This document shows, in pieces, positions 1-26,635 of a DNA stretch of 34,192 nt (position 1 is its first letter; each line of letters begins with the position of its first letter). The notes under the pieces were generated by a model. It was not told where the DNA came from. It saw only the letters and a program-made list of their open reading frames with translations, and did no database searches. The stretch lies in the NCBI GenBank assembly GCA_045111695.1, contig JBGUGW010000092.1, positions 1 through 34,192 on the forward strand, in the 5' to 3' direction. Source of the stretch: Candidatus Cryptobacteroides sp. GTDB taxonomy: Bacteria; Bacteroidota; Bacteroidia; Bacteroidales; UBA932. The translations under genes were made by a program, and so were the position numbers.

Positions 1-422
1 CTGTCCGAAGTGGAATGGAACAGATGTCCGAGCGTTTCAAGTCTGGCCTTTATGCCGCCTGCATTGACTATGTTGCCGTTGTGGGCGAGGGCGAAAGTCC
101 CGGCCTTGCAGCTCATCCTGAAAGGCTGGATGTTCTCGATTCCGCCGACTTCGGTGGTGGGGTAGCGTACGTGGCCTATGCAGGTGTCGCCGGAAAGCCC
201 GGCAAGGGCGCTCTCCGGGAAAACGTCCTTGACCAGCCCCGCGCCCTTGTGGATGAGCAGGCCTCCGTCAGGGCCTGCGACGGCCATGCCGCAGGCCTGC
301 TGGCCCCGGTGCTGCAGTGCCTGCAGCCCCAGGAAAGCATGCCGCGGGGCCTTCTCCACTCCGTAGATGCCCAATACGCCGCACTCCTCGTGCAACTCCT
401 CGAAACAGTGACTAAAGTCCAT
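1..422 (-). CDS. purF: Amidophosphoribosyltransferase, N-terminal part (runs off the window edge; absent from the ORF track)
   Basis: Manual translation from ATG at 422: MDFSHCFEELHEECGVLGIYG...LQALQHRGQQACG...IGHVRYPTT...ENIQPF...ALAHNGNIVNA...FHSTSD. These are PurF Ntn-glutaminase motifs with a short propeptide before the catalytic Cys. The start overlaps the dapL stop. Confidence 0.92.
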   Translation of the reverse strand, partial: MDFSHCFEELHEECGVLGIYGVEKAPRHAFLGLQALQHRGQQACGMAVAGPDGGLLIHKGAGLVKDVFPESALAGLSGDTCIGHVRYPTTEVGGIENIQPFRMSCKAGTFALAHNGNIVNAGGIKARLETLGHLFHSTSD

Positions 423-1617
423 TTATGCAGTGTTCCATCCTGTCCATGGCTTCAATCGTCCTTGCCCTGTCGGCGAATGACGTGAGCCTGAAGTATCCCT
501 TGCCGGCCTGGCCGAAGCCTGATCCGGGAGTGACGACGATGCCCGCCTTCTTCAGCAGGGCGTCGAAGAACTCCCAGTCATCCATGCCGTCCGGTGTCTG
601 TGCCCATACGTACGGGGCGTTCTCTCCGCCGGAAGCGCGTAGCCCCGCCCGTTGCAATCCCTCGCGGATGATAGCGGCGTTGCCGAGGTAGTAGCGGATG
701 CTCTCGCGGGTCTGCTCCCGCCCTTCGGGCGTATACACCGCGTATGCGCCGCGCTGCGACACGTACGAGGCCCCGTTGAACTTGCAGCCCTGCCGGCGCT
801 CCCACAGCGCGTTGAAGGACTTCTCCGTGCCGTCCGCGCTGCGGCCACGGAGTCCCTTCGGGACGACGGTGTACCCGCAGCGTATGCCGGTGAAACCGGC
901 CGTCTTGGAGAAGCTCCTGAACTCGATCGCGCATTCCCGCGCGCCTCCGATCTCGTAGATGGAGTGCGGGATGTCCGGGTCCTGGATGAAGGCCTCGTAG
1001 GCCGAATCGTACAGGATCAGGGTACCGTTCCTGAGAGCGTAATCCACCCATCCTTTCAGCTTGTCGCGGCTTATCACCGCACCCGTAGGATTGTTGGGAT
1101 AGCAAAGATATACAATATCCAGCTTTTCATCAGGGATTTGTCCGGTAAATCCGTCTTCTTCGGAGCAGGGGATGAACCGTATCTTCCTTCCGTCGATGAC
1201 GTTGGTGTCTACATAGACGGGATAGACGGGGTCGATGATGCCTACTGTGTTCTCATGGGAGAACAGGTCCAGGATGTTTCCCAGGTCGCTTTTGGCACCG
1301 TCGCTGATGAAGACCTCTTCCGGATCGACGTTGACGCCCCGGGAGGCGTAGTCCCCCCGGACGACGGCCTCCCGGAGCCAGCCGTAGCCGTGCTCCGGCC
1401 CGTAGCCGTGGAACCTCTCCTGAACGGAGAGGTCGTCCACGGCCTCGTGCATGGCACGTATGATGGCCGGGGCGATGGGGAGCGTCACGTCCCCGATGCC
1501 CATCCTGATGATGTCGGTTTCAGGAGAGGCCTCGTGGAAATCGGCCACCCTGCGCGCCACCTCCTGGAACAGATAGCGGTGTTCCAGTTTGCAGAATCCT
1601 TCTTTGATCCGTATCAT
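412..1617 (-). CDS. dapL: LL-diaminopimelate aminotransferase
   Basis: Motifs YLFQEV, MGIGDVT, GYGPEHGY, SDGAKSD, CYPNNPTG, YDSAY and PLP-lysine motif SFSKTAGFTGIRCG; adjacent to dapF. Confidence 0.95.
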   Translation of the reverse strand: MIRIKEGFCKLEHRYLFQEVARRVADFHEASPETDIIRMGIGDVTLPIAPAIIRAMHEAVDDLSVQERFHGYGPEHGYGWLREAVVRGDYASRGVNVDPEEVFISDGAKSDLGNILDLFSHENTVGIIDPVYPVYVDTNVIDGRKIRFIPCSEEDGFTGQIPDEKLDIVYLCYPNNPTGAVISRDKLKGWVDYALRNGTLILYDSAYEAFIQDPDIPHSIYEIGGARECAIEFRSFSKTAGFTGIRCGYTVVPKGLRGRSADGTEKSFNALWERRQGCKFNGASYVSQRGAYAVYTPEGREQTRESIRYYLGNAAIIREGLQRAGLRASGGENAPYVWAQTPDGMDDWEFFDALLKKAGIVVTPGSGFGQAGKGYFRLTSFADRARTIEAMDRMEHCINGL

Positions 1618-1619
1618 GG

Positions 1620-2474
1620 CTAGTCCTCCGGAAGTTCAATGGTACCTTCGAAAACGGTCGTGGCGGTGCCTGTCATGCGGATTTCCTTGGTGGCGGGGTC
1701 CCACGACACGTCCAGCGCACCGCCATCCATGATGACGGTGCATTTGTCAGGCCGCGTATAGCCGGCCATGGCCGCGGCTACGGCCGTGGCGCACGCGCCC
1801 GTGCCGCAGGCCTGCGTGATGCCGCTGCCGCGCTCCCATACGCGCATGCGGATGTGCCTCTCGTCGAGCACTTGCGCGAATTCGATGTTAGCCCGGTTGG
1901 GGAACATCAAGTCCTTCTCGAACAGCGGTCCGGCTTCCGCCACCGGCGCGGCCTCGGCATCCGGTACGAACAGTACCAGATGCGGATTGCCGACGTCCAC
2001 GGCGGTCCCGCGGAAACGCCTTCCGCAGGCGAAGAGGTCGTCCAGTATCCACTGTCCCTTGCTCCCGTCGGGGAGGTTGACCTCGAGGGGGACTCCCTTA
2101 CCCATGTCCACGCTGACGTCGCGTACCTGCCCCTCGTCATCGAGGTGCAGGTCCAGGACCTTGATGCCCGAGAGAGTATCCAGCTTGATGACGGTCTTGT
2201 CAGACAGGCCCTTGTCATGGATGTAGCGGCCCACGCAGCGCGAGCCGTTGCCGCACATTAGGGCTTCGGAGCCGTCGGCATTGAATATCCTCATGCTGAA
2301 GTCGGCCTTGTCCGAGCTTCCGATGAGGATGATGCCGTCGGATCCTATCCCCTTGTGCCTGTCGCTCCAAAGGACCGACAGCCGGGCCGGGTCGTCGATG
2401 GGATGCTCCATCGTGTTGATGTAGATGTAGTCGTTGCCGAGACCGTGCATCTTGGTGAATGGTATCCGTTTCAT
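1620..2474 (-). CDS. dapF: Diaminopimelate epimerase
   Basis: [29 protein letters not shown] and [17 protein letters not shown], with both catalytic Cys present. Confidence 0.97.
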
Positions 2475-3820
2475 ACGCGTCCTTTCAGATAATCGTCAAC
2501 TTCCTGCGCGACCGCCCTTCCTCCGGCCAGGGCCCTCACTACCAGGCTGGTGCCGGTCTTGGCGTCGCCTGCAAGGAAGACGTTCGGTCCGAATTCCGGG
2601 TGCTGGGGCTTCAGGAAACCCATGGCCAGCAGCACCATGTCGCACTCGATAATGCTCTTGTTGCCCGTGGGCTTCATCTGCGGACGGCCTCCGTCCGGAG
2701 CCGGCAGCCACTCTACCTCTTCGACTTCCACGCCGGCCACGCGGCCCTTGCCGTCGTCGAGGAAACGGCAGGAGGACAGGCTCCAGCGCCTGATGCAGCC
2801 TTCCTCATGGCTTGTGGAGGTCCTCAGGATCATGGGCCATGCGGGCCAAGGCGTCGCAGGGTTGTACCCCTCCGGCGGTTTGGGCATGATCTCGATCTGG
2901 GTGACGTTCTTGCAGCCCTGGCGGTGGCATGTGCCGATGCAGTCGCTGCCGGTATCGCCTCCGCCAATCACAAGGACGGTCCTTCCCTTGGCAGAGACGG
3001 TCTCTTCCTTGCTGAACTGCTCTCCCGCGAGCCTGCGGTTCTGCTGGGTCAGCAGGTCAAGCGCGAAATAAATGCCCTTGAGTTCCCTTCCGGGAATGGG
3101 CAGGTCGCGTGCGGTAGGCGTGCCGGTGGATATGACATAGGCGTCATAGCCTTCCGGCAGGTGTTCCGTATCCACGGTCACGCCGTAGCGGAAGGTGATG
3201 CCTTCTTGCTCCAGCACGGCTATGCGCCTGTCAATGATATACTTGTCCAGCTTGAAGTTGGGTATGCCATAGCGGACGAGGCCTCCTGCGGACGGCATCT
3301 TCTCCAGTACGGTGACGTCATATCCGCGCTTGTTGAGCTGTACGGCCGCGGAGAGCCCGGCAGGGCCGCCTCCAACCACGGCCACCTTCTTCCCGTTGCG
3401 GGGATAGGAGTGCGGATGGACATATCCTTCGCGGAACGCGCGCTCGATGATCGAGCATTCGTTCTCGCGGACGGTGACGGGTGCGTCCATGGCGTGGTTG
3501 AGCACGCAGCTCTTCTCGCACAATGCGGGACAGATGCGTCCGGTGAATTCCGGAAAGTCATTGGTCTGCGACAGGAGCTTGTATGCAAGCTCCCACTTGC
3601 CTTTGCAGGCGGCGTCCTGCCATTCGGGCTGGCGGTTGCCCAAAGGGCAGGCCCAATGGCAGAACGGTATGCCGCAGTCCATGCACCGGGAAGCCTGGAG
3701 CATGCGGTCGCCCTCGTTGAGGGTCTGCTCCACTTCTCCGAAATTGGAGACTCTTTCAAATACCGGCCTGTGGCCGGCTTCCTGACGGGGAATGGTCAGG
3801 AATGCATTCGGGTTTCCCAT
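2471..3820 (-). CDS. gltD: Glutamate synthase small (beta) subunit
   Basis: [10 protein letters not shown] and GRICPALCE Fe-S motifs, GGGPAGL FAD site, [13 protein letters not shown](P)H site; follows gltB. Confidence 0.96.
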
Positions 3821-3832
3821 ATTCCGTATCCG

Positions 3833-6800
3833 TTAATATTCCATTTGTACATTGTCGATCTTCTCGTTGAGCTTGCGCAGCTGCTCCTCGTGGAGTACGC
3901 GCTTGTACTCGATAGGCGTGACCTGGATGAAGTCCTCGGCATACTCGGACCAGTGCTCCAGCATCCTGGCGGCAAGGGCCGAGCCCGTCAGCCTGCGGTG
4001 TTCCGCGATAAGGCTCTTGAGTTCTTCCATCCTGGCCTTCTCCTCGATCAGGCCAAGCTCGATCATCTCCATGTTGCAGTAGTAGTCGAAGTTGTGGTCG
4101 GGGTCCCAGACATAGGCGAGGCCGCCGGACATACCGGCTGCGAAGTTGCGTCCGGTGGGTCCGAGGACCACGATACGTCCGCCCGTCATGTATTCGCAGC
4201 AGTGGTCTCCCACTCCTTCCACAACGGCGATGGCGCCGGAGTTGCGGACGGCGAAGCGTTCGCCGGCGCGGCCGGCCATGAACAGCGAGCCGGACGTCGC
4301 GCCGTAGAGCAGCGTATTTCCGGCGATAGTGTTCTCGGAAGCGTCGAAATGGGCGTCCGGGTTGGGCCGGACTATGATGCGGCCTCCGGAAAGGCCCTTG
4401 CCCAGGTAGTCGTTAGCTTCACCTTCAAGCCTGAAATTGACTCCCTTCATCAGGAAGGCACCGAAACTCTGTCCGGCCGATCCGTGGAAGGTGACGTTCA
4501 CGGTCCCGTCGGGCAGGCCTTCCTCGCCATAGCGTTCCGCTATGCGGCCGGACAGCAGGGCGCCGACGGTACGGTCGGTGTTCGCTATGCCGTAGTGCAG
4601 CGACACGCTGCGGCCACTCTCAATAGCGGGCTTTGCTGCCGCCAGGATATGCCTGTCGAGGACATCCCCGAGGACATTCCTGTATCCGGAATCGGCGTGG
4701 AGGTGACCTTCACCGTTCTGGAAGAGAAGACGGCCGAAGTCCAGCGAAGCCGCCTTCGTGCCCGTCTTTGCCTTGTCCACGGTGATGAGGTCCGTGCGTC
4801 CGACGATGTCCTCGAACTTGCGGAATCCCATGTCTGCGAGGTACTCGCGCACCTCCTGGGCCAGGAAACGGTAGTAGTTGACGAGGGCGTCGCTGCATCC
4901 GCGGTAAAGCTTGAGCAGCTGGGGATTGCGGGTTGCGATGCCCATAGGGCAGGAGTTGGCGTGGCACTTGCGCATGAGCACGCAGCCGAGCACGATGAGC
5001 TGGGCCGTGCCGAAACCGAATTCGTCCGCACCCAGGAGGGCCATGGCGACGACGTCGCGGCCGGTCTTGAGCTGGCCGTCGGTCTGGAGGGTGACCTTGT
5101 CACGGAGCCCGTTCTGGATAAGCGTCTGCCTGGTCTCGGAAAGGCCTATTTCGGGCGGGAGACCCGCATAGCGTATCGAGGACATAGGGGATGCTCCCGT
5201 ACCGCCCTCGGCTCCGGATATGACGATTAGGTCGGCCTTGGCTTTGGCTACGCCTGCGGCCACGGTGCCGACACCGCTCTCCGCGACTAGTTTCACGCTG
5301 ATGCGTGCATCGGGATTGACGTTGCGGAGGTCGAAGATCAGCTGTGCAAGGTCCTCGATGGAATAGATGTCGTGGTGGGGCGGGGGAGAGATCAGCGAGA
5401 TGCCCGGAATGGAGTGGCGCGTACGCGCGATGATGCCGTCGACCTTGTAGCCGGGCAGCTGGCCTCCTTCGCCGGGCTTTGCGCCCTGGGCTATCTTGAT
5501 CTGGATCTCCCTTGCGTTGACAAGGTACTCGGTGGTGACTCCGAAGCGACCGGAAGCGACCTGCTTGATGCCGCTGTTCTTTTCCGTGTGGAAACGTTCG
5601 CGGTCCTCTCCGCCTTCACCTGTGTTGCTGCGCGAGCCGAGGCGGTTTAAGGCTTCAGCAATGGCCTCATGGGCGCCCTGGCTGATGGCGCCGAAGGACA
5701 TTGCGGCTCCCACGAAGCGCTTTACGATCTCCTCCACGGGCTCGACTTCGTCGATCGGGATGGGATTGTGCTTGAAACTGAAGAAATCCCTGAGGAACAG
5801 GGGCTCCTTGTGGCCGTCCACGATGGAGGTGAACTCCTTGAACTTCTTGTAGTCGCCAGCACGGGTAGCCAGTTGCAGCGCAGCGATGGCTTCGGGTGTC
5901 CACGAGTGGGGAATGCCATCCTTCCTGAAGGAATATTGGCCGATATGTGGAAGGATGTCGGACACTTCGCAGTCAAATCCCTGCGCATGCATGCTGGCAG
6001 CGTCCTGTGCGATCCTGGACAGGGATATGCCGCCGACCGTAGAGGACGGCGTGCCGAAATACTCCCTGAGGAGGTCGGCTCCGAGTCCGATGCTTTCGAA
6101 TATCTTGGCTCCGCGGTAGGAACGAATCGTGGAGATACCCATCTTGCTGAGGATCTTCTTGAGTCCCTTGTCCACGGCCTTGATGTAGTTGTCACGGGCA
6201 GTCTCGAAATCGAGCTGCAGGTCTCCCTTCTTCACCAGGTCGTCGATGACGGCGAATGCCATGTAAGGGTTGACGGCGCTGGCGCCGTAGCCGAGCAGCA
6301 GGGCGGAGTGCATGGTCTCGCGTATCTCTCCGCTCTCGACGATGAGGGCGGTCTGGACACGCTTCTGCACTTTGACCAGGTAATGGTGTATCGCGCTGAC
6401 TGCCAGCAGCGAAGGGATGGCGGCGTGGGTCTCGTCCAGACCCCTGTCGCTGAGGATGATGTAGTTGATGCCGCGGTCGACGGAAGCTTCAGCCTCGCGG
6501 CACAGGCCGTCGAGGGCTTCCTTCATTCCGACTTCGCCCTTGGATTTCTCGAAAAGGATGGGCAGGACCTCGGTGTTGAAGCCCTTATAACGGATGTGGC
6601 AGAGGATGTCGAGCTCGTCGTTGGTCAGGACCGGCTGGGGGAGACGGACCATCTTGCAGTGGCTCTCGTCCGGGGTGAGGATGTTCATGCCAACGGCTCC
6701 GATATACTCCGTCAGGGACATGACGAGGTCCTCGCGGATAGGGTCGATAGGCGGGTTGGTCACCTGGGCGAACTGCTGGCGGAAATAGTTGAACAGCAGC

Positions 6801-8281
6801 TGGGGGCGCTCGGATACGGCCGCCAGCTGGGTATCGTTACCCATCGAGGAGACGGGTTCGGATGCCGTGCTGCACATGGGGACTATGATGCGCTCGATGT
6901 CCTCGCGGGTGTAGTCGAATGCCCTGAGCCTCCTTTCGAAGTCAGGGACGGAGTTCTGGGCTTTGCGGCCGCTGCGGAGTTTTGCAAGCTCGATGCGGCC
7001 GTTCGACAGCCAGCCCCTGTAGTCCTGACCGTCGGCCAGGCCTTGCTTGATCTCGTCGTTGCGGAAGATACGGCCGGTCTGGGTGTCGACCATGAGGATC
7101 TTGCCCGGCTGGAGCGAACCTTTCTCGATGACGGATCCGGCGTTGACGGGGAGGCATCCGGCCTCGGAGGCGATGGCGATCAGGCCCTTGTCGGTGATGA
7201 GGTAGCGCGAAGGACGCAGGCCGTTGCGGTCCAGCATGCCCCCGGCGTAACGGCCGTCGGAGAAGATGATGGCCGCGGGGCCGTCCCACGGCTCCATGAG
7301 GATGGAGTGATACTCGTAGAACGCCTTCAGGTCGTTGCCAATGGGGTTCTTTTCGTTGAAGGACTCAGGTATCATCATCGACATGACGTGGGGCAGGGAC
7401 ATGCCCGAATGGATGAAGAACTCCATCGCGTTGTCGAAGGATGCGCTGTCGCTCATGCCGGGCTGGATGATGGGATGGATGTCCCGGACATCCCCGAGCG
7501 CCTTGGAGGAGAGCACGCTCTCGCGCGCCTCCATCCATCCGCGGTTGCCGCGGATGGTGTTGATCTCGCCGTTGTGCGCCATCATCCTGAACGGCTGGGC
7601 CAGGGACCAGGCCGGGAAGGTGTTGGTGCTGAAGCGCGAATGGATCAGTGCCAGACCGGAAGTGAAGAACGGGCTGGACAGGTCCGGATAGTATTCCTTC
7701 AGCTGGGTGGAGGTCAGCATGCCTTTGTAGATGAGCACTTTGCTGGACAGGGATACGACATAGAAGTCCTTGTCGGACACCTTCTGCTCCACATGCTTGC
7801 GGATGCGGTAGAGCCTGGTCTCAAGCCCTTCCGGGTTGGCGTCGCTGCCGGTGATGAACACCTGTACGACATGCGGTTCGCATGCGCGGGCCGTCTCTCC
7901 GAGGATTTCGCTGTTCACGGGGACTTCGCGGACATTGGAAAGGACAAGTCCTTCCCTCTGTGTCTCCGCCTTGAGTACAGCCATGCATTCTTCTCCGGCC
8001 TTCTCATCCTTGGGAAGGAAAATGAGGCCGGTCCCGTACCTGGACCTTTCAGGTACGGGAATGCCCTGGAGGAGGATGAATTCGTGGGGTATCTGCACCA
8101 TGATGCCGGCGCCGTCGCCAGTCCTGGCGTCGGCGCCTTCGGCTCCACGGTGCTTCAGGTTCTCCAGCACTGTCAGTGCATCGCACACCAGCTGGTGGGT
8201 CTTGTTGCCGTTCAGGTCGGCGATCATACCCACTCCGCAGGCGTCGTGCTCGTATGCCGGATCGTATAAGGTTCTTTCCAT
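3833..8281 (-). CDS. gltB: Glutamate synthase large (alpha) subunit
   Basis: Start moved to ATG 8281 (MERTLYDPAYEHDACG) to avoid overlapping glnA. Contains HSRFSTNTFP, EPWDGPA, IKQVASGRFGV, QGAKPGEGGQLPG and the 3Fe-4S Cys motif GCVLMRKCHANSCPMG. Confidence 0.97.
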   Translation of the reverse strand: MERTLYDPAYEHDACGVGMIADLNGNKTHQLVCDALTVLENLKHRGAEGADARTGDGAGIMVQIPHEFILLQGIPVPERSRYGTGLIFLPKDEKAGEECMAVLKAETQREGLVLSNVREVPVNSEILGETARACEPHVVQVFITGSDANPEGLETRLYRIRKHVEQKVSDKDFYVVSLSSKVLIYKGMLTSTQLKEYYPDLSSPFFTSGLALIHSRFSTNTFPAWSLAQPFRMMAHNGEINTIRGNRGWMEARESVLSSKALGDVRDIHPIIQPGMSDSASFDNAMEFFIHSGMSLPHVMSMMIPESFNEKNPIGNDLKAFYEYHSILMEPWDGPAAIIFSDGRYAGGMLDRNGLRPSRYLITDKGLIAIASEAGCLPVNAGSVIEKGSLQPGKILMVDTQTGRIFRNDEIKQGLADGQDYRGWLSNGRIELAKLRSGRKAQNSVPDFERRLRAFDYTREDIERIIVPMCSTASEPVSSMGNDTQLAAVSERPQLLFNYFRQQFAQVTNPPIDPIREDLVMSLTEYIGAVGMNILTPDESHCKMVRLPQPVLTNDELDILCHIRYKGFNTEVLPILFEKSKGEVGMKEALDGLCREAEASVDRGINYIILSDRGLDETHAAIPSLLAVSAIHHYLVKVQKRVQTALIVESGEIRETMHSALLLGYGASAVNPYMAFAVIDDLVKKGDLQLDFETARDNYIKAVDKGLKKILSKMGISTIRSYRGAKIFESIGLGADLLREYFGTPSSTVGGISLSRIAQDAASMHAQGFDCEVSDILPHIGQYSFRKDGIPHSWTPEAIAALQLATRAGDYKKFKEFTSIVDGHKEPLFLRDFFSFKHNPIPIDEVEPVEEIVKRFVGAAMSFGAISQGAHEAIAEALNRLGSRSNTGEGGEDRERFHTEKNSGIKQVASGRFGVTTEYLVNAREIQIKIAQGAKPGEGGQLPGYKVDGIIARTRHSIPGISLISPPPHHDIYSIEDLAQLIFDLRNVNPDARISVKLVAESGVGTVAAGVAKAKADLIVISGAEGGTGASPMSSIRYAGLPPEIGLSETRQTLIQNGLRDKVTLQTDGQLKTGRDVVAMALLGADEFGFGTAQLIVLGCVLMRKCHANSCPMGIATRNPQLLKLYRGCSDALVNYYRFLAQEVREYLADMGFRKFEDIVGRTDLITVDKAKTGTKAASLDFGRLLFQNGEGHLHADSGYRNVLGDVLDRHILAAAKPAIESGRSVSLHYGIANTDRTVGALLSGRIAERYGEEGLPDGTVNVTFHGSAGQSFGAFLMKGVNFRLEGEANDYLGKGLSGGRIIVRPNPDAHFDASENTIAGNTLLYGATSGSLFMAGRAGERFAVRNSGAIAVVEGVGDHCCEYMTGGRIVVLGPTGRNFAAGMSGGLAYVWDPDHNFDYYCNMEMIELGLIEEKARMEELKSLIAEHRRLTGSALAARMLEHWSEYAEDFIQVTPIEYKRVLHEEQLRKLNEKIDNVQMEY

Positions 8282-8288
8282 AACGGGT

Positions 8289-10475
8289 TTAGTTGATGAA
8301 CAGGAGTTCACGGTACTTAGGCAGCGGCCACATGTCGTTGTCGACGATTTCTTCAAGCTTGTCGATAGGCCTGCGGATGGCGAACAGGCTCTCGGCGATC
8401 TCGTGATAGGCCTTCGCCTTCTCGTATTCGTTCTCGATGGTGTTCGCGCTCTTCCTGGCTTCGATCATCTGCGCGACGCCCTTCTGGAGCTGTTCTATCC
8501 TGTGGGAGATCTTCTCGATGAGGGCGATGGTCACTGCCGCCTTCTCCTTGTAGGAATCGGGGAAGTTCTCCTTCATCATGGTCAGGTTCTTGAGCAGGGT
8601 GTTCTGGTACGCAAGAGCGGCGGGGATGACGTGGTTGATGGCCATCCTGCCCATCACGCGGGACTCGATCTGCACTTTCTTGGTGTACATCTCCCACTTG
8701 ACCTCGTTGCGGGCCTCAAGTTCCTTGAGGGAATAGATGCCCAGCGAGGTGAACATCTCGACGGAAGCGGGGGTCGTGAAGGACTTGATCATCTCCGGTA
8801 CGCTGGTCTCGGTGTCGAGTCCGCGGCGTGCGGCCTCCTCCTTCCACTCGTCGGAGTAGCCGTTGCCGTCGAAGCAGACGACGTCGATGATGGAGGCGAT
8901 GACGGGCTTCAGCGTGTCCATAACGGCGACCTCGAGGGATTTGCCTGCGGCAAGCTCCTTGTCGAGATCCTTCTTGAACATCAGCAGCTGCTCGGCTACT
9001 GCACCGCTGAGAGCGGTCATCGCGCCGGCGCAGTTGGCCGAGGATCCGACGGCGCGGAACTCGAAGCGGTTGCCGGTGAAGGCAAACGGCGAGGTGCGGT
9101 TGCGGTCAGTGTTGTCGACGAAGATCTCGGGGATCTCCACGATGCCCACGGAAGTCTCCTTCTTGCCGGCAATCTCGATCGGGGTGCCGGAAGGGAGTTC
9201 TAGCAGTTTGTGGAGCACATCGGTCATAGTGCGTCCGAGGAATGCGGAGACGATTGCCGGCGGGGCCTCGTTGGCGCCGAGGCGATGGGCGTTGGTCGCG
9301 CTGGCGATGCTGGCCTTGAGCAGGGAGTTGTGTCTCTGCACGGCGGCCAGGATGTTCACGAAGAAGGTGACGAACTGGAGATTGCCCATCGCATCCTTGC
9401 CGGGAGCGAGGAGCAGGGTGCCGGTGTCGGTGCCGAGGGACCAGTTGTTGTGCTTGCCGGATCCGTTGATGCCGTCGAAGGGCTTCTCGTGCAGGAGCAC
9501 CACGAAGCCGTGCTTGCGGGCCACCTTGTTCATGATGTTCATTATCAACTGGTTCTGGTCGTTGGAGAGGTTGCACTCACCAAAGATCGGAGCGAGCTCG
9601 AACTGGTTCGGAGCCACTTCGTTGTGACGTGTCTTGAGCGGAATGCCGAGCTTGTAGCCTTCGTACTCGAGGTCCTTCATGAACGCAGCGACGCGGGAAG
9701 GGATGGCCGCGAAGTAGTGGTCTTCAAGCTGCTGGTTCTTGGAGGAGGCGTGGCCCATCAGGGTGCGTCCTGTGAGGATGAGGTCCGGCCTGGCGGCATA
9801 GAGGTCCTCGTCCACGAGGAAATATTCCTGCTCCCAGCCGAGATAGGAATGCACCTTGGAAACGGCGGGGTCGAAGAGTTTGCAGATGGGAACCGCCGCA
9901 TCGGAAACGGCCTTGAGCGCCTTCTTGAGCGGAGTCTTGTAGTCCAGGGCCTCTCCGGTGTAGGAGATGAACACCGTCGGGATACAGAGGGTGTCATCCT
10001 GGATGAAGACCGGGGAGGTCGGGTCCCAGGCGGTGTAGCCGCGCGCCTCGAAGGTGGCGCGGATGCCGCCGCTAGGGAAGGACGACGCGTCAGGTTCCTG
10101 CTGGATGAGGGACTTGCCGTTGAAGGATTCGATCATGCCTCCCTTGCGGTCGTATTCCATCAGGGAGTCGTGCTTCTCTGCGGTCACTTCAGTAAGCGGC
10201 TGGAACCAGTGCGTGATGTGGGTGACACCGTGCTCGAGCGCCCATTCCTTCATTCCTTCCGCGACTTTATCAGCGGTGGATAGGTCGAGTGGACGTCCAT
10301 TGTCGATACAGTCGATAAGCGCCTCGTAGGCCTTGATGTCAAGATACTTGCGCATCTTCTCGCGGTTGAACACCAGCTCTCCGAAATAGGCGGAAGGCCT
10401 CTCTGCGGGGGCGGTCACGTCCAAAGCCCTCTTCTTGAAGGCGTCCTGGACCACATCGAATCTAAGTTTGCTCAT
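8289..10475 (-). CDS. glnA: Glutamine synthetase type III (GSIII, GlnN family)
   Basis: 728 aa with HWFQPLT, AEKHDS, EPDASSFPSGG, HNEVAPNQFE, HEKPFDGINGSGKHNNWS and DRNRTSPFAFTGNRFEFR. Confidence 0.96.
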   Translation of the reverse strand: MSKLRFDVVQDAFKKRALDVTAPAERPSAYFGELVFNREKMRKYLDIKAYEALIDCIDNGRPLDLSTADKVAEGMKEWALEHGVTHITHWFQPLTEVTAEKHDSLMEYDRKGGMIESFNGKSLIQQEPDASSFPSGGIRATFEARGYTAWDPTSPVFIQDDTLCIPTVFISYTGEALDYKTPLKKALKAVSDAAVPICKLFDPAVSKVHSYLGWEQEYFLVDEDLYAARPDLILTGRTLMGHASSKNQQLEDHYFAAIPSRVAAFMKDLEYEGYKLGIPLKTRHNEVAPNQFELAPIFGECNLSNDQNQLIMNIMNKVARKHGFVVLLHEKPFDGINGSGKHNNWSLGTDTGTLLLAPGKDAMGNLQFVTFFVNILAAVQRHNSLLKASIASATNAHRLGANEAPPAIVSAFLGRTMTDVLHKLLELPSGTPIEIAGKKETSVGIVEIPEIFVDNTDRNRTSPFAFTGNRFEFRAVGSSANCAGAMTALSGAVAEQLLMFKKDLDKELAAGKSLEVAVMDTLKPVIASIIDVVCFDGNGYSDEWKEEAARRGLDTETSVPEMIKSFTTPASVEMFTSLGIYSLKELEARNEVKWEMYTKKVQIESRVMGRMAINHVIPAALAYQNTLLKNLTMMKENFPDSYKEKAAVTIALIEKISHRIEQLQKGVAQMIEARKSANTIENEYEKAKAYHEIAESLFAIRRPIDKLEEIVDNDMWPLPKYRELLFIN

Positions 10476-10493: not shown

Positions 10494-12161
10494 TTAATAT
10501 GCTTGTACATGGACTCCGGCGACGGCGCGGCCGCTGGGGTCATTGAGGTTCTTGAAAGCCGCATCCCACTCGAGTGCGATGGCGGTGGAGCAGGCCACGC
10601 TGGCCTCGCTGGGCACCGAAAGGGCGGCAGAATCGCTCGGGAACAGCTCGGAGAAGATGCTGCGGTAGTAGTACTCCTCCTTGTTCTGGGGCGTATGGAT
10701 GGGGAAGCGGTTCGCGGCATGCGCCATCTGCTCGTCGGTGACGGCCTCGGCCGCGATGCGCTTGAGGGTGTCGATCCAGGAGTAGCCGACGCCGTCGGAG
10801 AACTGCTCCTTCTGCCTCCAGGCGATCTCGTCCGGGATAAGGTCGGCGCACGCCTCGCGCACTATCTTCTTCTCTATGATCTGGCCGGGGCACATCTTCG
10901 CGGCCGGGTTCAGGCGCATGGCCACGTCCAGGAATTCCTTGTCCAGGAACGGGACGCGTCCCTCGACGCCCCAGGCCGCGAGGCTCTTGTTTGCTCTCAG
11001 GCAGTCGTAGAGATGGAGCTTGGATAGCTTGCGGACCGTCTCCTCGTGGAATGCGCGTGCATCCGGAGCCTTGTGGAAATACAGGTAGCCGCCGAATATC
11101 TCGTCGGCACCCTCGCCGGACAGCACCATCTTGATGCCCATCGATTTGATGACGCGTGCCAGCAGATACATCGGCGTCGAGGCGCGTATGGTCGTGACAT
11201 CGTAAGTTTCTGTATAATATATGACATCACGGATGGCATCCAGGCCTTCCTGGATGGTATAGTTGATCTCGTGGTGGACGGTGCCGATGTGTTCGGCGAC
11301 CATGCGCGCCTTGTCGAGGTCGGGCGCACCCTTGAGGCCGACGGCGAAAGAATGAAGCCGCGGCCACCAGGCGCGCGTCCTGGAGTCGTCCTCGATACGC
11401 ATCGCGCTGAACTTCTCGGCTATCGCCGAAATGACGGAGGAGTCGAGTCCGCCGGAGAGCAGCACGCCGTAAGGGACGTCGGACATCAGCTGGCGCTTTA
11501 CCGCAGACTCCAGCGCAGCACGGAGCTGCGCCGGGTCGGCGGGATTGTCCTTGACATTTTCATATTCGGTCCAGTCGCGCCGGTACCAGCGCTTCATGCC
11601 GGGCTCGCGGCTCCAGTAGCAGTGGCCGGGCAGGAAGGGCTCGTAGCGTTCGCACTGGCCTTCCAGGGCCTTCAGCTCGCTGGCGACATAGACCTTGCCG
11701 TCCGCGTCATCGAAGCCGATGTACAGGGGAATGACTCCAATGGGGTCGCGGGCGATCAGGAATGCGTCCTTCTCCTCGTCATACAGTGCGAAGGCGAAGA
11801 TGCCGTTGAGATCCTCCAGGAAGTCCGGGCCCTTGTCGCGGTACAGCGCGAGGATGACCTCGCAGTCGCTGCCCGTACGGAAATCGTATTTTCCTGCGTA
11901 GCGGCGGCGGATCTCCTGATGGTTGTAGATCTCGCCGTTCACTGCCAGCACCTGCTTCCCGTCAGGGGAGAGGAGCGGCTGTCCGCCGGACTCCGGGTCC
12001 ACGATGCTCAGGCGCTCGTGGGCCATTACGGCGCTCCCGCCGCACCAGATACCGCTCCAGTCCGGCCCCCTGTGCCGAAGTTTGCGGCTCATCTCAAGAG
12101 CCTTCCGGCGCATGGCGTCGGACTGTTCGCGAATGTTGAAAATGCAAGCTATTCCACACAT
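10494..12161 (-). CDS. asnB: Asparagine synthetase B (glutamine-hydrolysing)
   Basis: N-terminal MCGI, HRGPDWSG, NGEIYNH, LSGGLDSS, SGEGADE and RQKEQFSDGVG. Confidence 0.97.
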   Translation of the reverse strand: MCGIACIFNIREQSDAMRRKALEMSRKLRHRGPDWSGIWCGGSAVMAHERLSIVDPESGGQPLLSPDGKQVLAVNGEIYNHQEIRRRYAGKYDFRTGSDCEVILALYRDKGPDFLEDLNGIFAFALYDEEKDAFLIARDPIGVIPLYIGFDDADGKVYVASELKALEGQCERYEPFLPGHCYWSREPGMKRWYRRDWTEYENVKDNPADPAQLRAALESAVKRQLMSDVPYGVLLSGGLDSSVISAIAEKFSAMRIEDDSRTRAWWPRLHSFAVGLKGAPDLDKARMVAEHIGTVHHEINYTIQEGLDAIRDVIYYTETYDVTTIRASTPMYLLARVIKSMGIKMVLSGEGADEIFGGYLYFHKAPDARAFHEETVRKLSKLHLYDCLRANKSLAAWGVEGRVPFLDKEFLDVAMRLNPAAKMCPGQIIEKKIVREACADLIPDEIAWRQKEQFSDGVGYSWIDTLKRIAAEAVTDEQMAHAANRFPIHTPQNKEEYYYRSIFSELFPSDSAALSVPSEASVACSTAIALEWDAAFKNLNDPSGRAVAGVHVQAY

Positions 12162-12186: not shown

Positions 12187-12894
12187 TTAAGGCTGCAATG
12201 TGATGCCTACTACCAGGTAAGCGGCGTTGATGCAAGGGTTGAAAACCACCTGCGTGAACAGGGGAATGGAGAAGGTGTCAGTCACCTGGATATCCTTCGC
12301 AGCTGTCAGCGCCAGGTTGACGAGGCTGAAACCGTCCGTGCCGTAGAAGTCCGTCGCGAAGGGGACGATGCCCGCGGTGGCGGTCCAGTCGACGTCTCCG
12401 ATGGAGAACGGGACGCTGGCTTCGAGGTAGCTACTGTAAGCAAGCTTTCCGGACTCGCCCAGGCTGTCGTTGCCGGCGAAATTGGTGTACCACTGCAGGG
12501 AGGCGAAGCCGAAGTCATAGCCGGCATTAGCCTCGAACACATGGTTGGTGCAGCCGGAGCCGTAGGCGAAATATCGGTTGTCCGGGTCGAGGCCGGAGTC
12601 GAACCAATAGTCGGTCACCCCGATGTTGAAACCTCCGGCAGAATAGGCGAGCGTCAGGTCGAACTCCCTCGTGTCGAGGGGATTGCTCAGGCCGACGGAC
12701 CCCCAGGCCGACAGGCTGAGGCCCTTGAAGCCTATGCCGAGCGTCGGCTGTACCGACACGCCGCCGAGATCCTGGCCGCGCCACACATAGTGGCTGACGA
12801 TGTCCGTACCGAGCGTTGTTTCGACCGCGTCTTGTGCCCCTGCGGTCACTGCTCCAGAGAGCAGCATGATAATGGGGATGAATATCTTTTTCAT
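12187..12894 (-). CDS. Exported, probable outer-membrane beta-barrel protein (TorF-like putative porin)
   Basis: Signal peptide (MKKIFIPIIMLLSGAVTAGAQ), SHYVWRG..G..VQP N-terminal motif, EFDLTLAY, and alternating aromatic/polar strands; lies between amtB and asnB. Family assignment is by recognition only. Confidence 0.65.
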   Translation of the reverse strand: MKKIFIPIIMLLSGAVTAGAQDAVETTLGTDIVSHYVWRGQDLGGVSVQPTLGIGFKGLSLSAWGSVGLSNPLDTREFDLTLAYSAGGFNIGVTDYWFDSGLDPDNRYFAYGSGCTNHVFEANAGYDFGFASLQWYTNFAGNDSLGESGKLAYSSYLEASVPFSIGDVDWTATAGIVPFATDFYGTDGFSLVNLALTAAKDIQVTDTFSIPLFTQVVFNPCINAAYLVVGITLQP

Positions 12895-12906: not shown

Positions 12907-14124
12907 TTAGTTGTAGCAACTCTCGCCGTGTTCGTAGATGTCGAGGCCTTCGTCTTCGACCCTTGCCTCGACGCGCAGGCCGTGGGCCTTCTTGATGCCG
13001 AAGAACAGCAGGAATCCGCAGACTGTGGCCCAGATGTCGATGACCAGGATACCAAGGCACTGTACTCCGAAGAAATGCCATCCGCCGCCGTAGAAGAGAC
13101 CTCCGTCAGTGGCGAGAAGGCCGGTAAGGATGGTGCCCAGGATGCCGCATACTCCGTGGACGGACGATGCGCCTACAGGGTCGTCGATGTGCAGCTTATG
13201 GTCAATGAACTCGATTGCGAATACCAGCACGATGCCGCAGAGCAGGCCGATGACGACGGCTCCCCATGGCGACACGAGGTCGCATCCGGCCGTGATGCCG
13301 ACCAGACCTGCCAGGACGCCGTTGAGCGTCAACGACAGCGAGGGCTTGCCGTACTTGAGCCAGGTAAGGAACATGGTCGCGGTACCGCCTGCTGCAGCTG
13401 CAAGGTTGGTGGTCAGGAAGACGTGCGAGATGGCGGTGCGGTTTACTTCACCGCTGGCGGCCAGCTGGCTGCCGGGATTGAATCCGAACCATCCGAGCCA
13501 GAGGATGAATACGCCCAGGGCAGCGATGGCGAGGTTGTGTCCGGGGATGGCCCGGCTCTTACCGTCCTTGCCGTATTTGCCACGGCGCGGTCCGAGTGCG
13601 ATTGCTCCGATCAGGGCAAGCACGCCGCCTACGCTGTGCACGATGGCGCTGCCGGCGAAATCATGGAAGCCGAGTTCGGAGAGCCAGCCTCCTCCCCATG
13701 TCCAGTGTCCCTCGACGGGATAGACTATCAAGGAGATGAATGCACTGTAAACAAGGTACATCGAGAATTTTGTGCGCTCTGCCATGGCGCCGCTGACGAT
13801 GGTCGCGGATGTTGCGCAGAAGACGGTCTCGAAGATCAGGAAACCTTCGACGGGCAGGTCGCCCTTGTAGAAGGAGAGGTCGCCCCAGTTGGGAGCGCCG
13901 ATGAATCCGGCTCCGTCGCTTCCGAACATGAAGCCGAAACCTACGAAGAAGAACAGCAGGGAGCCGAGCATGAAATCGACGAAGTTCTTCATCAGTATGT
14001 TGACGGTGTTCTTGCTGCGTGTGAATCCCGCCTCGCAGAGGGCGAATCCGGGTTGCATCCAGAAGACGAGCATAGCCGCAAGCAACATCCATACAGTATC
14101 CAGAGATATAGCTAATTCGTTCAT
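12907..14124 (-). CDS. amtB: Ammonium transporter
   Basis: Multi-TM protein with MQPGFA..EAG, TIVSGAMAER, HDFAGS.IVH, GWFGFN, IDDPVGASSVHG (twin His) and a C-terminal EGLD..EHG motif. Confidence 0.97.
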   Translation of the reverse strand: MNELAISLDTVWMLLAAMLVFWMQPGFALCEAGFTRSKNTVNILMKNFVDFMLGSLLFFFVGFGFMFGSDGAGFIGAPNWGDLSFYKGDLPVEGFLIFETVFCATSATIVSGAMAERTKFSMYLVYSAFISLIVYPVEGHWTWGGGWLSELGFHDFAGSAIVHSVGGVLALIGAIALGPRRGKYGKDGKSRAIPGHNLAIAALGVFILWLGWFGFNPGSQLAASGEVNRTAISHVFLTTNLAAAAGGTATMFLTWLKYGKPSLSLTLNGVLAGLVGITAGCDLVSPWGAVVIGLLCGIVLVFAIEFIDHKLHIDDPVGASSVHGVCGILGTILTGLLATDGGLFYGGGWHFFGVQCLGILVIDIWATVCGFLLFFGIKKAHGLRVEARVEDEGLDIYEHGESCYN

Positions 14125-14145: not shown

Positions 14146-14493
14146 TTACTTCTTGTCCCTGAGCACTGTGTCGCCGTGCTCGCCCGTACGTATCGACCAG
14201 GTGTCGATCACGTCGCTGACGAATATGCGTCCGTCCCCAACCTCTCCGGTATGGGCCTCGCGCAGGATGACCTCGACGGCCGGCTCGACGAACATGTCGC
14301 GGCAGATGATGGTCAGGGCGATGCGCTCGATGACGTCCGTGGAGTACTGGACTCCTCTGTAGATCCTCTCCTGGCGGCTCTGGCCGATACCGTGAACGTC
14401 ATGGTACTCGAACCAGTTGATGTCCGACTGCAACAGTGCTTCCTTCACATCCTCAAACCTTGTTTTCCGGATGATAGCTTCAATCCTTTTCAT
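14146..14493 (-). CDS. glnB: P-II family nitrogen regulatory protein (GlnB/GlnK)
   Basis: MKRIEAIIR, T-loop IYRGVQY, B-loop TGEVGDGRIFV and C-terminal IRTGEHG; upstream of amtB. Confidence 0.93.
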   Translation of the reverse strand: MKRIEAIIRKTRFEDVKEALLQSDINWFEYHDVHGIGQSRQERIYRGVQYSTDVIERIALTIICRDMFVEPAVEVILREAHTGEVGDGRIFVSDVIDTWSIRTGEHGDTVLRDKK

Positions 14494-14540: not shown

Positions 14541-14575
14541 AAAAACAAAAAAGACCGGCTCTTTCGAACCGGTCT
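14541..14575 (-). terminator. Intrinsic terminator (attenuator) in the 5' leader of the nitrogen operon
   Basis: Minus strand reads AGACCGGTTC-GAAA-GAGCCGGTCT followed by TTTTTGTTTTT: a 10-bp stem (one G-U), GNRA loop and U tract, about 47 nt before the glnB ATG. Confidence 0.9.
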
Positions 14576-14597
14576 CCTATTATGCATACCACAAAAA

Positions 14598-14714
14598 TCA
14601 CCTTATCCGACCGGCAAGACAAGATACAGCATTATTATTCTGGGAATTCTGTGAATTCTCAGAACCAAGCTGCTGCTGCTTGAAATTGGCCGTAATGGTG
14701 AAGATGTTGATCAT
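14598..14714 (-). CDS. Putative Gln/Asn-rich attenuator leader peptide (38 aa)
   Basis: ATG(14714)...TGA(14598) encodes MINIFTITANFKQQQLGSENSQNSQNNNAVSCLAGRIR with 5 Gln and 7 Asn. It lies between a consensus promoter and the terminator. Confidence 0.8.
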   Translation of the reverse strand: MINIFTITANFKQQQLGSENSQNSQNNNAVSCLAGRIR

Positions 14715-14733
14715 TTCGTTCGTTCTTCTGTTA

Positions 14734-14764
14734 CAAATTTAGCTAACGGAAAAATAAAATGCAA
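14734..14764 (-). promoter_or_regulatory. Bacteroidetes housekeeping-sigma promoter of the leader/nitrogen operon
   Basis: Minus strand TTG(14764-14762), 20-nt spacer, then TAAATTTG(14741-14734), matching the -33/-7 (TAnnTTTG) consensus. Confidence 0.75.
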
Positions 14765-16424: not shown

Positions 16425-19400
16425 TTATGCATATTCGTCCCAGCTCTTGATCGGCAGGTCGTCGACTTTCACCGTGCAGAAAGCGTTGATGAAGGCGATG
16501 GCGAGCCTTGCATTGGTTATGAGGGGGATGTTGAGGTCGATGGCCGCCCTGCGGATCTTGTATCCGTTGGAAAGTTCGCGGGGAGTCAGGTCCTTGGGGA
16601 TGTTGACGACCATGTCGATGGTGCGGTCATGCATCAGCTCTATTGCCTGGGGATGCTTGCCCTCGTCACTGGGCCAGTACACGGCAGTGTTCGGGATGCC
16701 GTTTTCCGAAAGGTAGCGGGACGTGCCGCCGGTTGCATACAGCTTGTATCCGTGCTCCGCCAGCATGCGGGCGGAGTCGAGCATCTCAGCCTTCTGCATC
16801 GGGGTTCCCGTGGAGAGGAGGATGCCCTTGGAGGGGATGCGGTACCCTACGGAAAGCATGGACTCGAGCATCGCGCCGGTGACGTCGTCGCCTATGCAGC
16901 CGACTTCGCCGGTAGACGCCATGTCCACTCCCAGTACGGGGTCGGCCTTCTGGAGCCTGTTGAATGAGAACTGCGAGGCCTTGATGCCGACGCAGTCAAG
17001 GTCGAAGAGATCCTTGGACGGGGGCTCGGGAGATTCGCCGAGCATGACCCTCGTGGCAAGCTCCACGAGATTGATTTTCAGCACCTTGCTGACGAAGGGG
17101 AAGCTGCGGCTCGCACGGAGGTTGCACTCTATGACCTTGACGTCGTTGTTCTTGGCGAGGTACTGGATGTTGAAAGGTCCCGAAATGTGGAGCTCTTGCG
17201 CGATCTTGCGGCTGATGCGCTTGATGCGTCGTACCGTCTCGACGTAGAGTTTCTGTGGCGGGAACTGGATGGTGGCGTCGCCGGAATGCACGCCGGCGAA
17301 CTCCACATGTTCGCCGATGGCGTAAGCGATGATGCGGCCGTGGTCCGCCACGGCATCGAACTCGATCTCCTTGGCATGTTCGATGAAGCGGCTGACCACG
17401 ACGGGGTGCTCCTGCGAGACCTCGGCGGCCAGCTGCAGGAAGCGCTCCAGCTCCTCTTCGTTGGAACAGACATTCATGGCCGCGCCGGAGAGCACATATG
17501 AAGGCCGGACAAGGACGGGGAAGCCCACCCTTCCGATAAAGGCGGCGATATCCTCACGAGAAGTGAGTTCGCCCCATTCTGGCTGGTCCACACCTATGCG
17601 GTCCAGCATGGCGGAGAATTTCTTGCGGTCTTCGGCATGGTCGATGTCCTCGGCTGAAGTGCCCAGGAGCGGGATGCCGCGTGCCGCCAACTTGACGGCG
17701 AGGTTGTTGGGGATCTGGCCTCCGGTCGAGACGACCACGCCTTTCGGCCGTTCGAAGTCAGCGATGTCGAGCACCCGCTCGAAAGACAACTCGTCGAAAT
17801 ACAGGCGGTCGCAGATGTCGTAGTCGGTCGAGACCGTCTCGGGATTGTAGTTGATCATCACGCTCCTGTATCCGCGGCTGCGGACGGTGTTGAGCGCCTG
17901 GACGCAGCACCAGTCGAACTCGACGGAGGAGCCTATCCTGTAGGCTCCGGAGCCGAGTACGATGACGCCGTCCCGGCCGTCGTCGAACGAGATGTCGTTC
18001 TCGGTGCCCTGGTAGGTCAGGTAGAGGTAGTTGGTCTTGGCGGGGAACTCGCCGGCCATCGTGTCGATCTGTTTGACGACGGGGGTGATGCCATAATTCC
18101 CGCGCAGTGCGCGGATGTCAAGGGACTCGAATGTGTGTCCCGGGCGTGACATCGCACGCGATATTTGGAAGTCTGAGAATCCGTAGACTTTCGCCTTGCG
18201 GAGCAGTTCGGGGCTGATCTCAGGTCCCGATGCGCCGATCTCGTCCGCGATGTCGACGATATTGCGGAGCTTGCGGAGGAACCAGCGGTCGATGCTGGTC
18301 AGCTCATGTATCCTGTCCACGCTGTAACCGACCTGCATGGCTTCGCTGATGGCGAAGATGCGCATGTCGGTCGGCTCCTTGAGAGCACGGTCCATGCCGT
18401 CCATGCGTATGTGCCTGTTCTCCACGAAGCCGTGCATTCCCTGGCCTATCATCCTGAGGCCTTTCTGGATGGCTTCCTCGAAGGTGCGGCCGATGGCCAT
18501 GACTTCTCCCACCGACTTCATGCTCGAACCGATCTCGCGGTCCACACCGTGGAACTTGCCCAGATCCCATCTGGGGATCTTGCAGACGACGTAGTCCAGC
18601 GCCGGCTCGAAGAATGCTGAAGTCGTCAGGGTGACGCTGTTCCTGAGCTCGAAGAGGCCCTTGCCGAGTCCCAGCTTGGCTGCGACGAAGGCAAGGGGAT
18701 AGCCCGTAGCCTTGGAGGCGAGGGCGGAAGAACGGCTGAGGCGGGCGTTGACCTCGATGACGCGGTACTCCTCGGAATCGGGGTCGAATGCGTACTGGAC
18801 GTTGCATTCACCGATGATGCCCAGATGCCTTACTATGCGGATGGAGAGTTCGCGGAGGAAATGGTATTCGGCGTTGGTCAGTGTCTGCGAAGGGGCGATG
18901 ACAATGCTCTCGCCGGTATGGATGCCGAGCGGGTCGAAATTCTCCATGTTACAGACCGTGATGCAGTTGTCGTACGCGTCGCGGACGACCTCGTATTCGA
19001 TCTCTTTCCAGCCCTTGAGGCTCTTCTCTACGAGGACCTGGGGTGAGAACGAGAATGACTTCTCGGCGAGGCGGACGAGCTCGTCCTCGTTGTCGCAGAA
19101 GCCCGAGCCGAGTCCGCCGAGGGCGAAGGCCGAGCGGAGGATGACGGGGTAGCCGAGCTCTTTGGCGGCTTTCCTGGCCGCATCGATGCTCTCGCAGGCT
19201 TCGCTCTTGATGGTCTTGACGTCGATCTCGTCAAGCCTTTTCACGAAGAGTTCGCGGTCTTCTGTGTCTATGATGGTCTGGACGGGCGTGCCCAGCACGC
19301 GGACGCCGTATTTCTCAAGTATTCCTCCTTTGTAAAGCTCGATGCCGCAGTTCAGTGCGGTCTGGCCGCCGAATGAGAGGAGAATGCCGTCCGGGCGCTC

Positions 19401-20807: not shown

Positions 20808-20811
20808 ACAC

Positions 20812-20842
20812 AAAAAACCGATTCCGTCCTTGGAGGGAATCG
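20812..20842 (-). terminator. Terminator-like hairpin in the carAB-pyrG 5' UTR (candidate attenuator)
   Basis: Minus strand CGATTCC-CTCCAAGGAC-GGAATCG then GTTTTTTG; the U tract ends 4 nt before the carAB ATG. Confidence 0.6.
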
Positions 20843-26485: not shown

Positions 26486-26542
26486 ATGAGACTTGAAAGC
26501 AACATAGCCAACCTGTTTTTCTGGTGGCGTCTGGGCGAATAG
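26486..26542 (+). CDS. trpL: Tryptophan attenuator leader peptide (18 aa)
   Basis: ATG...TAG encodes MRLESNIANLFFWWRLGE with tandem TGG TGG, between a promoter and a terminator upstream of trpB2. Confidence 0.85.
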   Translation: MRLESNIANLFFWWRLGE

Positions 26543-26602
26543 ATCGGTCAGACTCTTAAGATGTTGCGCAATGCTCGCCGGAGATTTCCGGGCTGAAATA
26601 TC

Positions 26603-26635
26603 AAGGGCTGTCCGATTTGGGGACGGCCCTTTTTT
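26603..26635 (+). terminator. Attenuator terminator upstream of trpB2
   Basis: AAGGGCTGTCC-GATTTGG-GGACGGCCCTT followed by a T run. Confidence 0.88.

Follow-up and report, generated by a model that had tools for sequence, protein, structure and literature searches.

A predicted glutamine/asparagine-codon attenuator upstream of the nitrogen-assimilation operon of Candidatus Cryptobacteroides

Results

Gene organization of the glnB locus

The window, by which we mean the whole 34,192-nt stretch of Candidatus Cryptobacteroides sp. that was analysed (contig JBGUGW010000092.1), carries nitrogen-assimilation genes preceded by a leader region (Table 1). Nine genes lie downstream of the leader on one strand with intergenic gaps of approximately 25 nt or less. 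Seven terminator-like sites were found in this 14-kb gene stretch, compared with 11 expected from shuffled sequences; three of the seven are on the operon strand, and all three lie inside ORFs. The original prediction had placed the whole operon under the control of the leader. The gene arrangement agrees with this, and the operon itself is predicted from that arrangement rather than from transcripts. Among 12 RNA runs listed, none contained half of the sequence words; the four that were aligned all consisted of contigs of relatives and favour neither outcome. On the upstream side lies pyrG, which is encoded on the same strand; 30 nt separate its end from the promoter, and no further terminator was found in between. 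Elsewhere in the window, carA and carB form a single fused ORF of 1462 codons (16425-20813, minus strand). The 110-nt region upstream of it contains a hairpin with a U-tract, and no Gln/Asn ORF was flagged there; at the related locus L123, a weaker Gln/Asn leader lies ahead of carAB.

Table 1. Features of the leader and of the downstream genes in the window
Feature	Position	Strand	Basis
Bacteroidota-type promoter, predicted (-33 TTG, -7 TAnnTTTG)	14734..14764	-	sequence
Leader ORF, 38 codons, ATG start, TGA stop	14714-14598	-	sequence
Control-codon stretch, codons 13-28, 10 of 16 Gln/Asn	14631..14678	-	sequence; distance to segment 2 kept in relatives
Hairpin S1, 5' strand, within last ORF codons	14617..14625	-	9 pairs with 14608-14600; covariation
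Segment 2 (GCCGGTC), putative antiterminator strand, in S1 loop	14609..14615	-	7 pairs with 14574-14568; covariation
Hairpin S1, 3' strand, ends at stop codon	14600..14608	-	pairing with 14625-14617
Segment 3 (GACCGGT), terminator 5' arm	14574-14568	-	complementary to segment 2
Intrinsic terminator	14541..14578	-	terminator scan; covariation; 5' arm shared with antiterminator helix S2
glnB/glnK, PII protein, first regulated gene (predicted)	14146..14493	-	PF00543
amtB, ammonium transporter	12907..14124	-	TIGR00836 above cut-off
Gcw_chp-family protein, probable outer-membrane porin	12187..12894	-	PF09694
asnB, asparagine synthase B	10494..12161	-	NF006949 above cut-off
Glutamine synthetase type III (GSIII)	8289..10475	-	PF12437, PF18318
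gltB and gltD, glutamate synthase	2471..8356	-	NF008730, TIGR01317
dapF and dapL, last genes of probable operon	412..2474	-	TIGR00652, TIGR03542

The promoter consists of TTG at 14764 and TAAATTTG at 14741-14734 on the minus strand. The coordinates of the consensus promoter that had been proposed were reproduced; it fits the Bacteroidota-type consensus, and a sigma70 scan of the leader region did not call it. With a loose pattern, and without a control, a -7-like motif was found in 33 of 36 non-redundant leaders, at most 50 nt ahead of the start.

Gln or Asn occupies 12 of the 38 codons of the leader ORF, including three consecutive CAG codons (14678-14670) and three consecutive AAT codons (14639-14631). 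All coordinates of the ORF that had been proposed, with the QQQ and NNN positions, held on re-reading of the sequence, and a recount of the Gln/Asn residues at positions 13-28 gave the same number. A search of the ORF against Pfam and NCBIfam returned no match. Among 602 ATG-started ORFs of 10-70 aa taken from 597 upstream regions of this genome, it ranked first in Gln/Asn density, with 7 of 12 codons against 5 for the runner-up, and was thus a genome-wide outlier. Three of these ORFs had at least 5 Gln/Asn in 12 codons, and the leader was the only one with a terminator behind it. The folding z-score of the leader RNA was -5.6.

The terminator is a 13-pair stem (14578-14549) with a 4-nt loop and a U-tract reaching to approximately 14541; its 10-pair core has an energy of -18.1 kcal/mol, and it lies 48 nt from glnB. 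The strong terminator predicted before glnB is therefore present, and no second terminator-like site was found between 14300 and 15100. Segment 2 had been proposed to pair with segment 3 in a structure mutually exclusive with the terminator. All seven pairs were confirmed, and the resulting helix, S2, covaries in relatives. The stacking energy of S2 in the window is -16.1 kcal/mol compared with -21.2 kcal/mol for the terminator, and hairpin S1 has nine pairs and an energy of -7.7 kcal/mol. Because the pairing of the window leader compared with shuffled sequences was not significant on its own (p = 0.10), the support for the antiterminator comes from relatives. In the unconstrained fold of the window leader, segment 2 pairs with the 5' part of the ORF, unlike in the relatives, where it lies in the S1 loop.

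Conservation of the leader within the genus

A search of 301 genomes of the genus detected GlnB in 60, of which 55 were surveyed. A Gln/Asn-rich ORF followed by a terminator was present in 40 of the 55, so that the small ORF and terminator that the original prediction expected in relatives do occur there, with covariation (see below). In total, 47 leaders were obtained (35 with ATG and 12 with GTG as the start codon); five genomes carry two or three leaders each. Among the 15 genomes without such a leader, the operon start lies off the contig in seven, GlnB is divergent (50-59% identity) and other leaders or none occur in another seven, and one (L065) has an intact operon start and a different leader. 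When only genomes with a GlnB of at least 68% identity and the operon start on the contig were considered, the leader was found in 40 of 41. The different leader of L065 (8717-8890) is structured, with a hairpin and no clear U-tract, and precedes purF-pyrG-glnB-amtB. At two loci with a divergent GlnB and without a Gln/Asn leader (L073 and L075), another ORF of 26-27 codons with a terminator was located approximately 240 nt before glnB; the two ORFs have a Leu-Trp...Ala-Ser-Arg-Gln pattern in common and possibly encode an arrest peptide.

The gene following the leader was glnB in 20 cases, glnN in 17, asnB in five, a porin-like gene in four and carAB in one. The leader tracks whichever nitrogen gene comes first through rearrangements. 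In the reading frame, 514 of the 1486 codons of the 47 leaders (34.6%) were Gln or Asn. The two other frames gave 2.0% and 6.5%, and the share in the genes of this genome is approximately 6.6%. The value of 34.6% arises partly by selection, since the leaders were chosen for Gln/Asn density and a terminator. The prevalence of 40 of 41 at intact operon starts is free of this effect. Both Asn codons were used (AAT 175, AAC 74). The encoded peptides are 21-44 aa long, the Gln:Asn ratio ranges from 10:1 to 1:10, and the order of residues is not fixed. The Asn share was 0.65 before asnB (n = 4) and 0.36 before glnN (n = 16), uncorrected for kinship, and this difference was absent in one of three same-genome contrasts.

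Position of the control codons relative to segment 2

Geometry and covariation were analysed in 36 non-redundant leaders (<85% identical), the carAB leader being left out. A 6-nt segment 2 was located 39-60 nt before the 5' arm of the terminator. Gln and Asn accounted for 340 of the 503 codons (68%) ending 24-65 nt before segment 2, for 25 of 144 codons at 12-23 nt, for 12 of 282 (4%) at less than 12 nt or beyond, and for 20 of 180 codons further upstream than 65 nt. The position of the stop codon varied, between 14 nt ahead of segment 2 and 40 nt past it, and the distance of the Gln/Asn stretch was kept. A downstream ribosome footprint of 12 nt was adopted from the available part of a published account (PMC4833913). 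With this footprint, segment 2 remains accessible during a stall at 385 of the 397 Gln/Asn codons, and it is reached in all 36 leaders by a ribosome positioned at the stop codon. The geometry thus agrees with the earlier proposal that a ribosome at the stop codon would cover this segment and one stalled at QQQ or NNN would free it.

Covariation of helix S2 and hairpin S1

In a MAFFT alignment of the 36 leaders, S2 was 92% paired with 14 double changes, a level reached by none of 500 shuffles, and slid-register controls were at most 48% paired; the percentage for S2 is partly due to construction because segment 2 was located by complementarity. The terminator was 96.7% paired with 39 double changes. 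On a leader tree built without the S2 columns, the A-U/G-C swap in S2 required three to four changes, at least two of them forced by well-supported branches, and the U-A state required three changes, at least two of them likewise forced by strong branches. The mean energy of S2 was -12.5 kcal/mol, whereas 123 other terminators from the same genome, used as controls, averaged -8.0 kcal/mol; S2 reached -10 kcal/mol or better in 30 of 36 leaders compared with 20% of the control terminators. Taken one by one, only 9 of the 47 leaders had a best upstream duplex that surpassed shuffled sequences at p <= 0.05, and p-values overstate the significance because the leaders are related to each other.

When segment 2 was held unpaired, at least six pairs of S1 enclosed it in 34 of the 36 leaders, and S1 was convincing in 33; a convincing S1 was absent in three porin-type leaders. 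Its mean energy was -10.0 kcal/mol compared with -6.8 kcal/mol for swapped flanks and -6.3 kcal/mol for shuffled sequences, and the gap between segment 2 and the 3' strand of S1 was 0-1 nt in 27 of 36 leaders. In a fixed register, S1 was 70.6% paired with 62 double changes, and its covariation was 0.53, compared with 0.27 when shuffled and at most 0.25 when slid. S1 is conserved in pairing rather than in sequence. RNAalifold applied to an alignment of the segment-2 region returned no consensus structure and no S1. All statistics of S1 and S2 were computed on the discovery set of 36 leaders. Because segment 2 sits in the loop of the conserved hairpin S1, the antiterminator is somewhat more probably an H-type pseudoknot than a plain 2:3 helix, and the geometry suggests that S1 and S2 could coexist.

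Folding under ribosome constraints gave a mixed outcome for the proposed switch. Before completion of the terminator, the probability that segment 3 is sequestered was 0.81 with a stalled ribosome and 0.56 with a ribosome at the stop codon, a modest difference. In nested folding, which does not model pseudoknots, the terminator had a probability of approximately 1.0 at every ribosome position. Ribosome-masked folding with this model thus did not reproduce a switch at equilibrium; because the terminator wins at equilibrium for all ribosome positions, the switch would have to be kinetic. The trp antiterminator is likewise weaker than its terminator.

Occurrence beyond the genus and other codon versions

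A covariance model was built from the 3' half of the leader alone, mostly without control codons, and it detected one true site in this genome. Within the same family, matches were obtained in 13 of 150 other genomes, comprising four Gln/Asn leaders in three genera, five leaders in which the same RNA scaffold carries Trp codons and is followed by trpB2, a single Tyr leader, and plain terminators. A probable second family gave 23 matches in 16 of 151 genomes. Twenty of these (in 13 of the 151 genomes) were Gln/Asn leaders before glnB, a porin-like gene, asnB or glmS, and the other three were one glnN leader without Gln/Asn codons, one Phe/Tyr leader and one plain terminator. Further locus searches yielded gltB leaders and two tandem pairs. 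Both pairs, consisting of complete Gln/Asn attenuators, occur in one genome (G707), before glnB and before gltB (L215, approximately 9560-9990; L229/L241). Because the search filters were strict, the leader counts outside the genus are lower bounds.

An order-wide search of 151 genomes gave 15 matches in 14 genomes of other families, none of which was a Gln/Asn leader. In 40 of 84 amtB-positive genomes of other Bacteroidales families that were examined, no Gln/Asn leader with a terminator was found before a nitrogen gene, some operon starts lying outside the stretch that was examined. Among 80 named GlnB loci, the leader was present in 10 and in none titled Prevotella sp.; these loci may overlap with the surveyed genomes and were not added to the counts. 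In most rumen Prevotella loci, the same genes are present without a leader of this kind. GlnB proteins from many Prevotella-titled records are 85-90% identical to the GlnB of the window, and many GlnB proteins of the same genus are 68-76% identical to it. These identities hint at a transfer of the cluster between families.

Several other leaders were noted, the genes behind them being named by eye where indicated. A leader with Phe/Tyr codons precedes a DAHP-synthase-like gene (L262, by eye), and a Tyr-rich leader precedes a catabolic gene resembling those for tyrosine phenol-lyase and tryptophanase (L280, by eye). In genome G728 (L260), the scaffold lies before glnN with an ORF almost devoid of Gln/Asn codons, and may be a decayed or re-tuned attenuator. 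The window itself contains a second leader-peptide attenuator on the plus strand (26487-26543), with 18 codons including Phe-Phe-Trp-Trp; a terminator (approximately 26604-26634) and a gene for a trpB2-like PLP enzyme (26688-28052) follow. On contig C115 of this genome, a hisG-like gene (1261-2113, minus strand; by eye) is preceded by a leader of 17 codons, five of them for His, and by a terminator. The Trp and His leaders suggest that this genome uses leader-peptide attenuation for other pathways as well.

tRNA charging and nitrogen regulators

Both GlnRS and AsnRS, whose presence the original prediction had made a point to check, were found above their cut-offs. The genome, which is 90% complete, also contains tRNA-Gln(CTG) and tRNA-Asn(GTT), and GatB was not found in it. 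Since both synthetases and both tRNAs are present and GatB was not detected, charging of tRNA-Gln and tRNA-Asn would depend on the free amino acids. Three long NtrC-like activators were also found, all scoring below the ntrC cut-off. The genome further encodes one AsnC/Lrp protein and a split asnA, and GlnD was not found. No ANTAR protein was matched in the genome, and the control genomes likewise gave none. The claim that nitrogen status is read through tRNA charging rather than through an NtrBC- or GlnR-type regulator is thus not established in its second half. Because NtrC-like and AsnC/Lrp proteins are encoded in a genome that is 90% complete, control at the promoter level may coexist with the leader.

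Discussion

On the sequence evidence, the element upstream of glnB is likely a ribosome-mediated transcription attenuator that senses Gln and Asn codons. The sequence features of classical attenuators were found together: clustered control codons, their match to the downstream pathway, a terminator, an exclusive antiterminator, a suitable ribosome geometry and direct charging of the tRNAs. The trp/his/thr-type logic originally proposed is supported by the in-frame Gln/Asn codons, the fixed spacing, the compensatory changes and the direct action of GlnRS and AsnRS. The attenuator would read charged tRNA-Gln and tRNA-Asn. Under Gln/Asn shortage, a stall of the ribosome would occur 24-65 nt ahead of segment 2, within the Gln/Asn stretch. 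S1 would then fold, and its loop would pair with the emerging 5' arm of the terminator, S1 and S2 making up an H-type pseudoknot with a first loop of 1-2 nt and 0-1 nt between the helices. S2 would block the terminator kinetically and allow RNA polymerase to proceed into glnB-amtB-porin-asnB-glnN-gltBD-dapF-dapL. When Gln and Asn are plentiful, the ribosome would run to the stop codon, melt S1 and reach segment 2, and the terminator would form. AsnB makes Asn from Gln, and both codon types would therefore report the supply of fixed nitrogen.

The in-frame Gln/Asn excess, the fixed spacing and the covariation of S1 and S2 are left unexplained if the terminator only dampens or ends pyrG transcription constitutively while a DNA-binding regulator at the promoter controls the nitrogen response and the ORF is without function or serves some other purpose. 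Such an arrangement would suit the close upstream position of pyrG and the NtrC-like and AsnC/Lrp proteins, and most rumen Prevotella loci do have the same genes without the leader. In the available text of a study of P. ruminicola 23 (PMC5552732), a species outside the genomes examined here, the homologous cluster was strongly induced and changed 38-69-fold with ammonium; the words attenuation, leader and NtrC are absent from that text. Leaders also occur, however, at loci that lack an upstream pyrG, behind divergent promoters and as tandem copies, and we regard this explanation as quite improbable, while promoter control could act in addition to attenuation.

The Gln/Asn residues might instead be part of an arrest motif with which the nascent peptide, as in TnaC, stalls the ribosome on a free metabolite. 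A similar hydrophobic Val/Ser/Cys tail does occur at the end of many leaders. The codons of this tail, however, make up the 5' strand of S1 and are found again in the Trp leaders; neither the residue order, the length nor the Gln:Asn ratio of the peptide is fixed, and the stop codon shifts from -14 to +40 nt around segment 2 at a constant distance of the Gln/Asn stretch. An arrest peptide is thus an unlikely basis for the control. Alternatively, a ligand or an antiterminator protein that binds RNA might switch the pseudoknot, with the ORF secondary. An antiterminator weaker than its terminator is what would be expected if a stabilizer were needed, and nitrogen genes under ANTAR antitermination are known elsewhere. 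Such a switch would not explain why the scaffold carries Trp, Phe/Tyr or Gln/Asn codons in agreement with the downstream pathway. Moreover, the pairing of S1 is conserved and its sequence is not, and the Rfam search gave no family that reached the gathering score or had a good E-value; we give a riboswitch- or ANTAR-like switch very little credence.

The predicted Gln/Asn attenuator can be compared with known systems. The E. coli trpL, hisL, pheL, leuL, thrL and ilv leaders (the available parts of PMC1262725 and PMC4833913) share with it a short ORF, control codons matching the pathway, a terminator and an overlapping antiterminator freed by the stall, and two amino acids are read together as in thrL. 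Unlike in these leaders, the control codons are Gln and Asn, segment 2 lies in a hairpin loop and not in a 1:2 stem, the element occurs in several copies per genome and in tandem pairs, and the targets are ammonium uptake, PII, GS-GOGAT and AsnB, so that the response would concern global nutrition and not one pathway. The LEU element of Actinobacteria, compared by its description in the available part of PMC1262725, also combines a run of control codons in a leader ORF with a predicted pseudoknot, but its Leu codons pair with leuA's Shine-Dalgarno box and not with a terminator.

Other regulators act on the same kinds of genes. The glutamine riboswitch of glnA, T-boxes and ANTAR antitermination likewise control nitrogen or amino-acid genes from the 5' leader, but bind glutamine, uncharged tRNA and protein, respectively, and have no translated Gln/Asn ORF. 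The NtrBC/GlnD and GlnR/TnrA regulons have the same targets (glnK-amtB, GS and GOGAT) and the same signal, glutamine, but depend on protein regulators of initiation. The best Rfam match of the window had an E-value of 0.71, and no leader family was found in 20 related loci. In keeping with the earlier statement that no described Gln/Asn leader-peptide attenuator was known, none was found in the available portions of the literature searched, including PMC5552732, PMC4833913, PMC5737381, PMC13613805, PMC1262725 and PMC12304020; an earlier prediction in an attenuator survey (PMID 20198868) is possible. The logic of leader-peptide attenuation is known, and the Gln/Asn codons, the nitrogen-assimilation targets and the probable pseudoknot antiterminator are likely to be new.

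For nitrogen sensing in Bacteroidales, the leader offers a concrete, mutable cis-element for lineages abundant in the rumen and gut. If the proposed mechanism is true, the reach of attenuation would widen from pathways of single amino acids to global nitrogen status, and the element would be an example of a pseudoknot antiterminator under the control of a ribosome. The 200-nt element could also serve as a compact reporter of glutamine status. As a tentative picture, with rather less than an even chance of being right as a whole, a regulon of Gln/Asn leader-peptide attenuators may have taken the place of protein nitrogen regulators in uncultured Bacteroidales of the rumen and gut; its antiterminator would be a ribosome-gated pseudoknot, the scaffold would be a reusable Bacteroidales module with Trp, Phe/Tyr and Gln/Asn versions, the Gln:Asn ratio would tune it, and tandem doubling would tighten the control.
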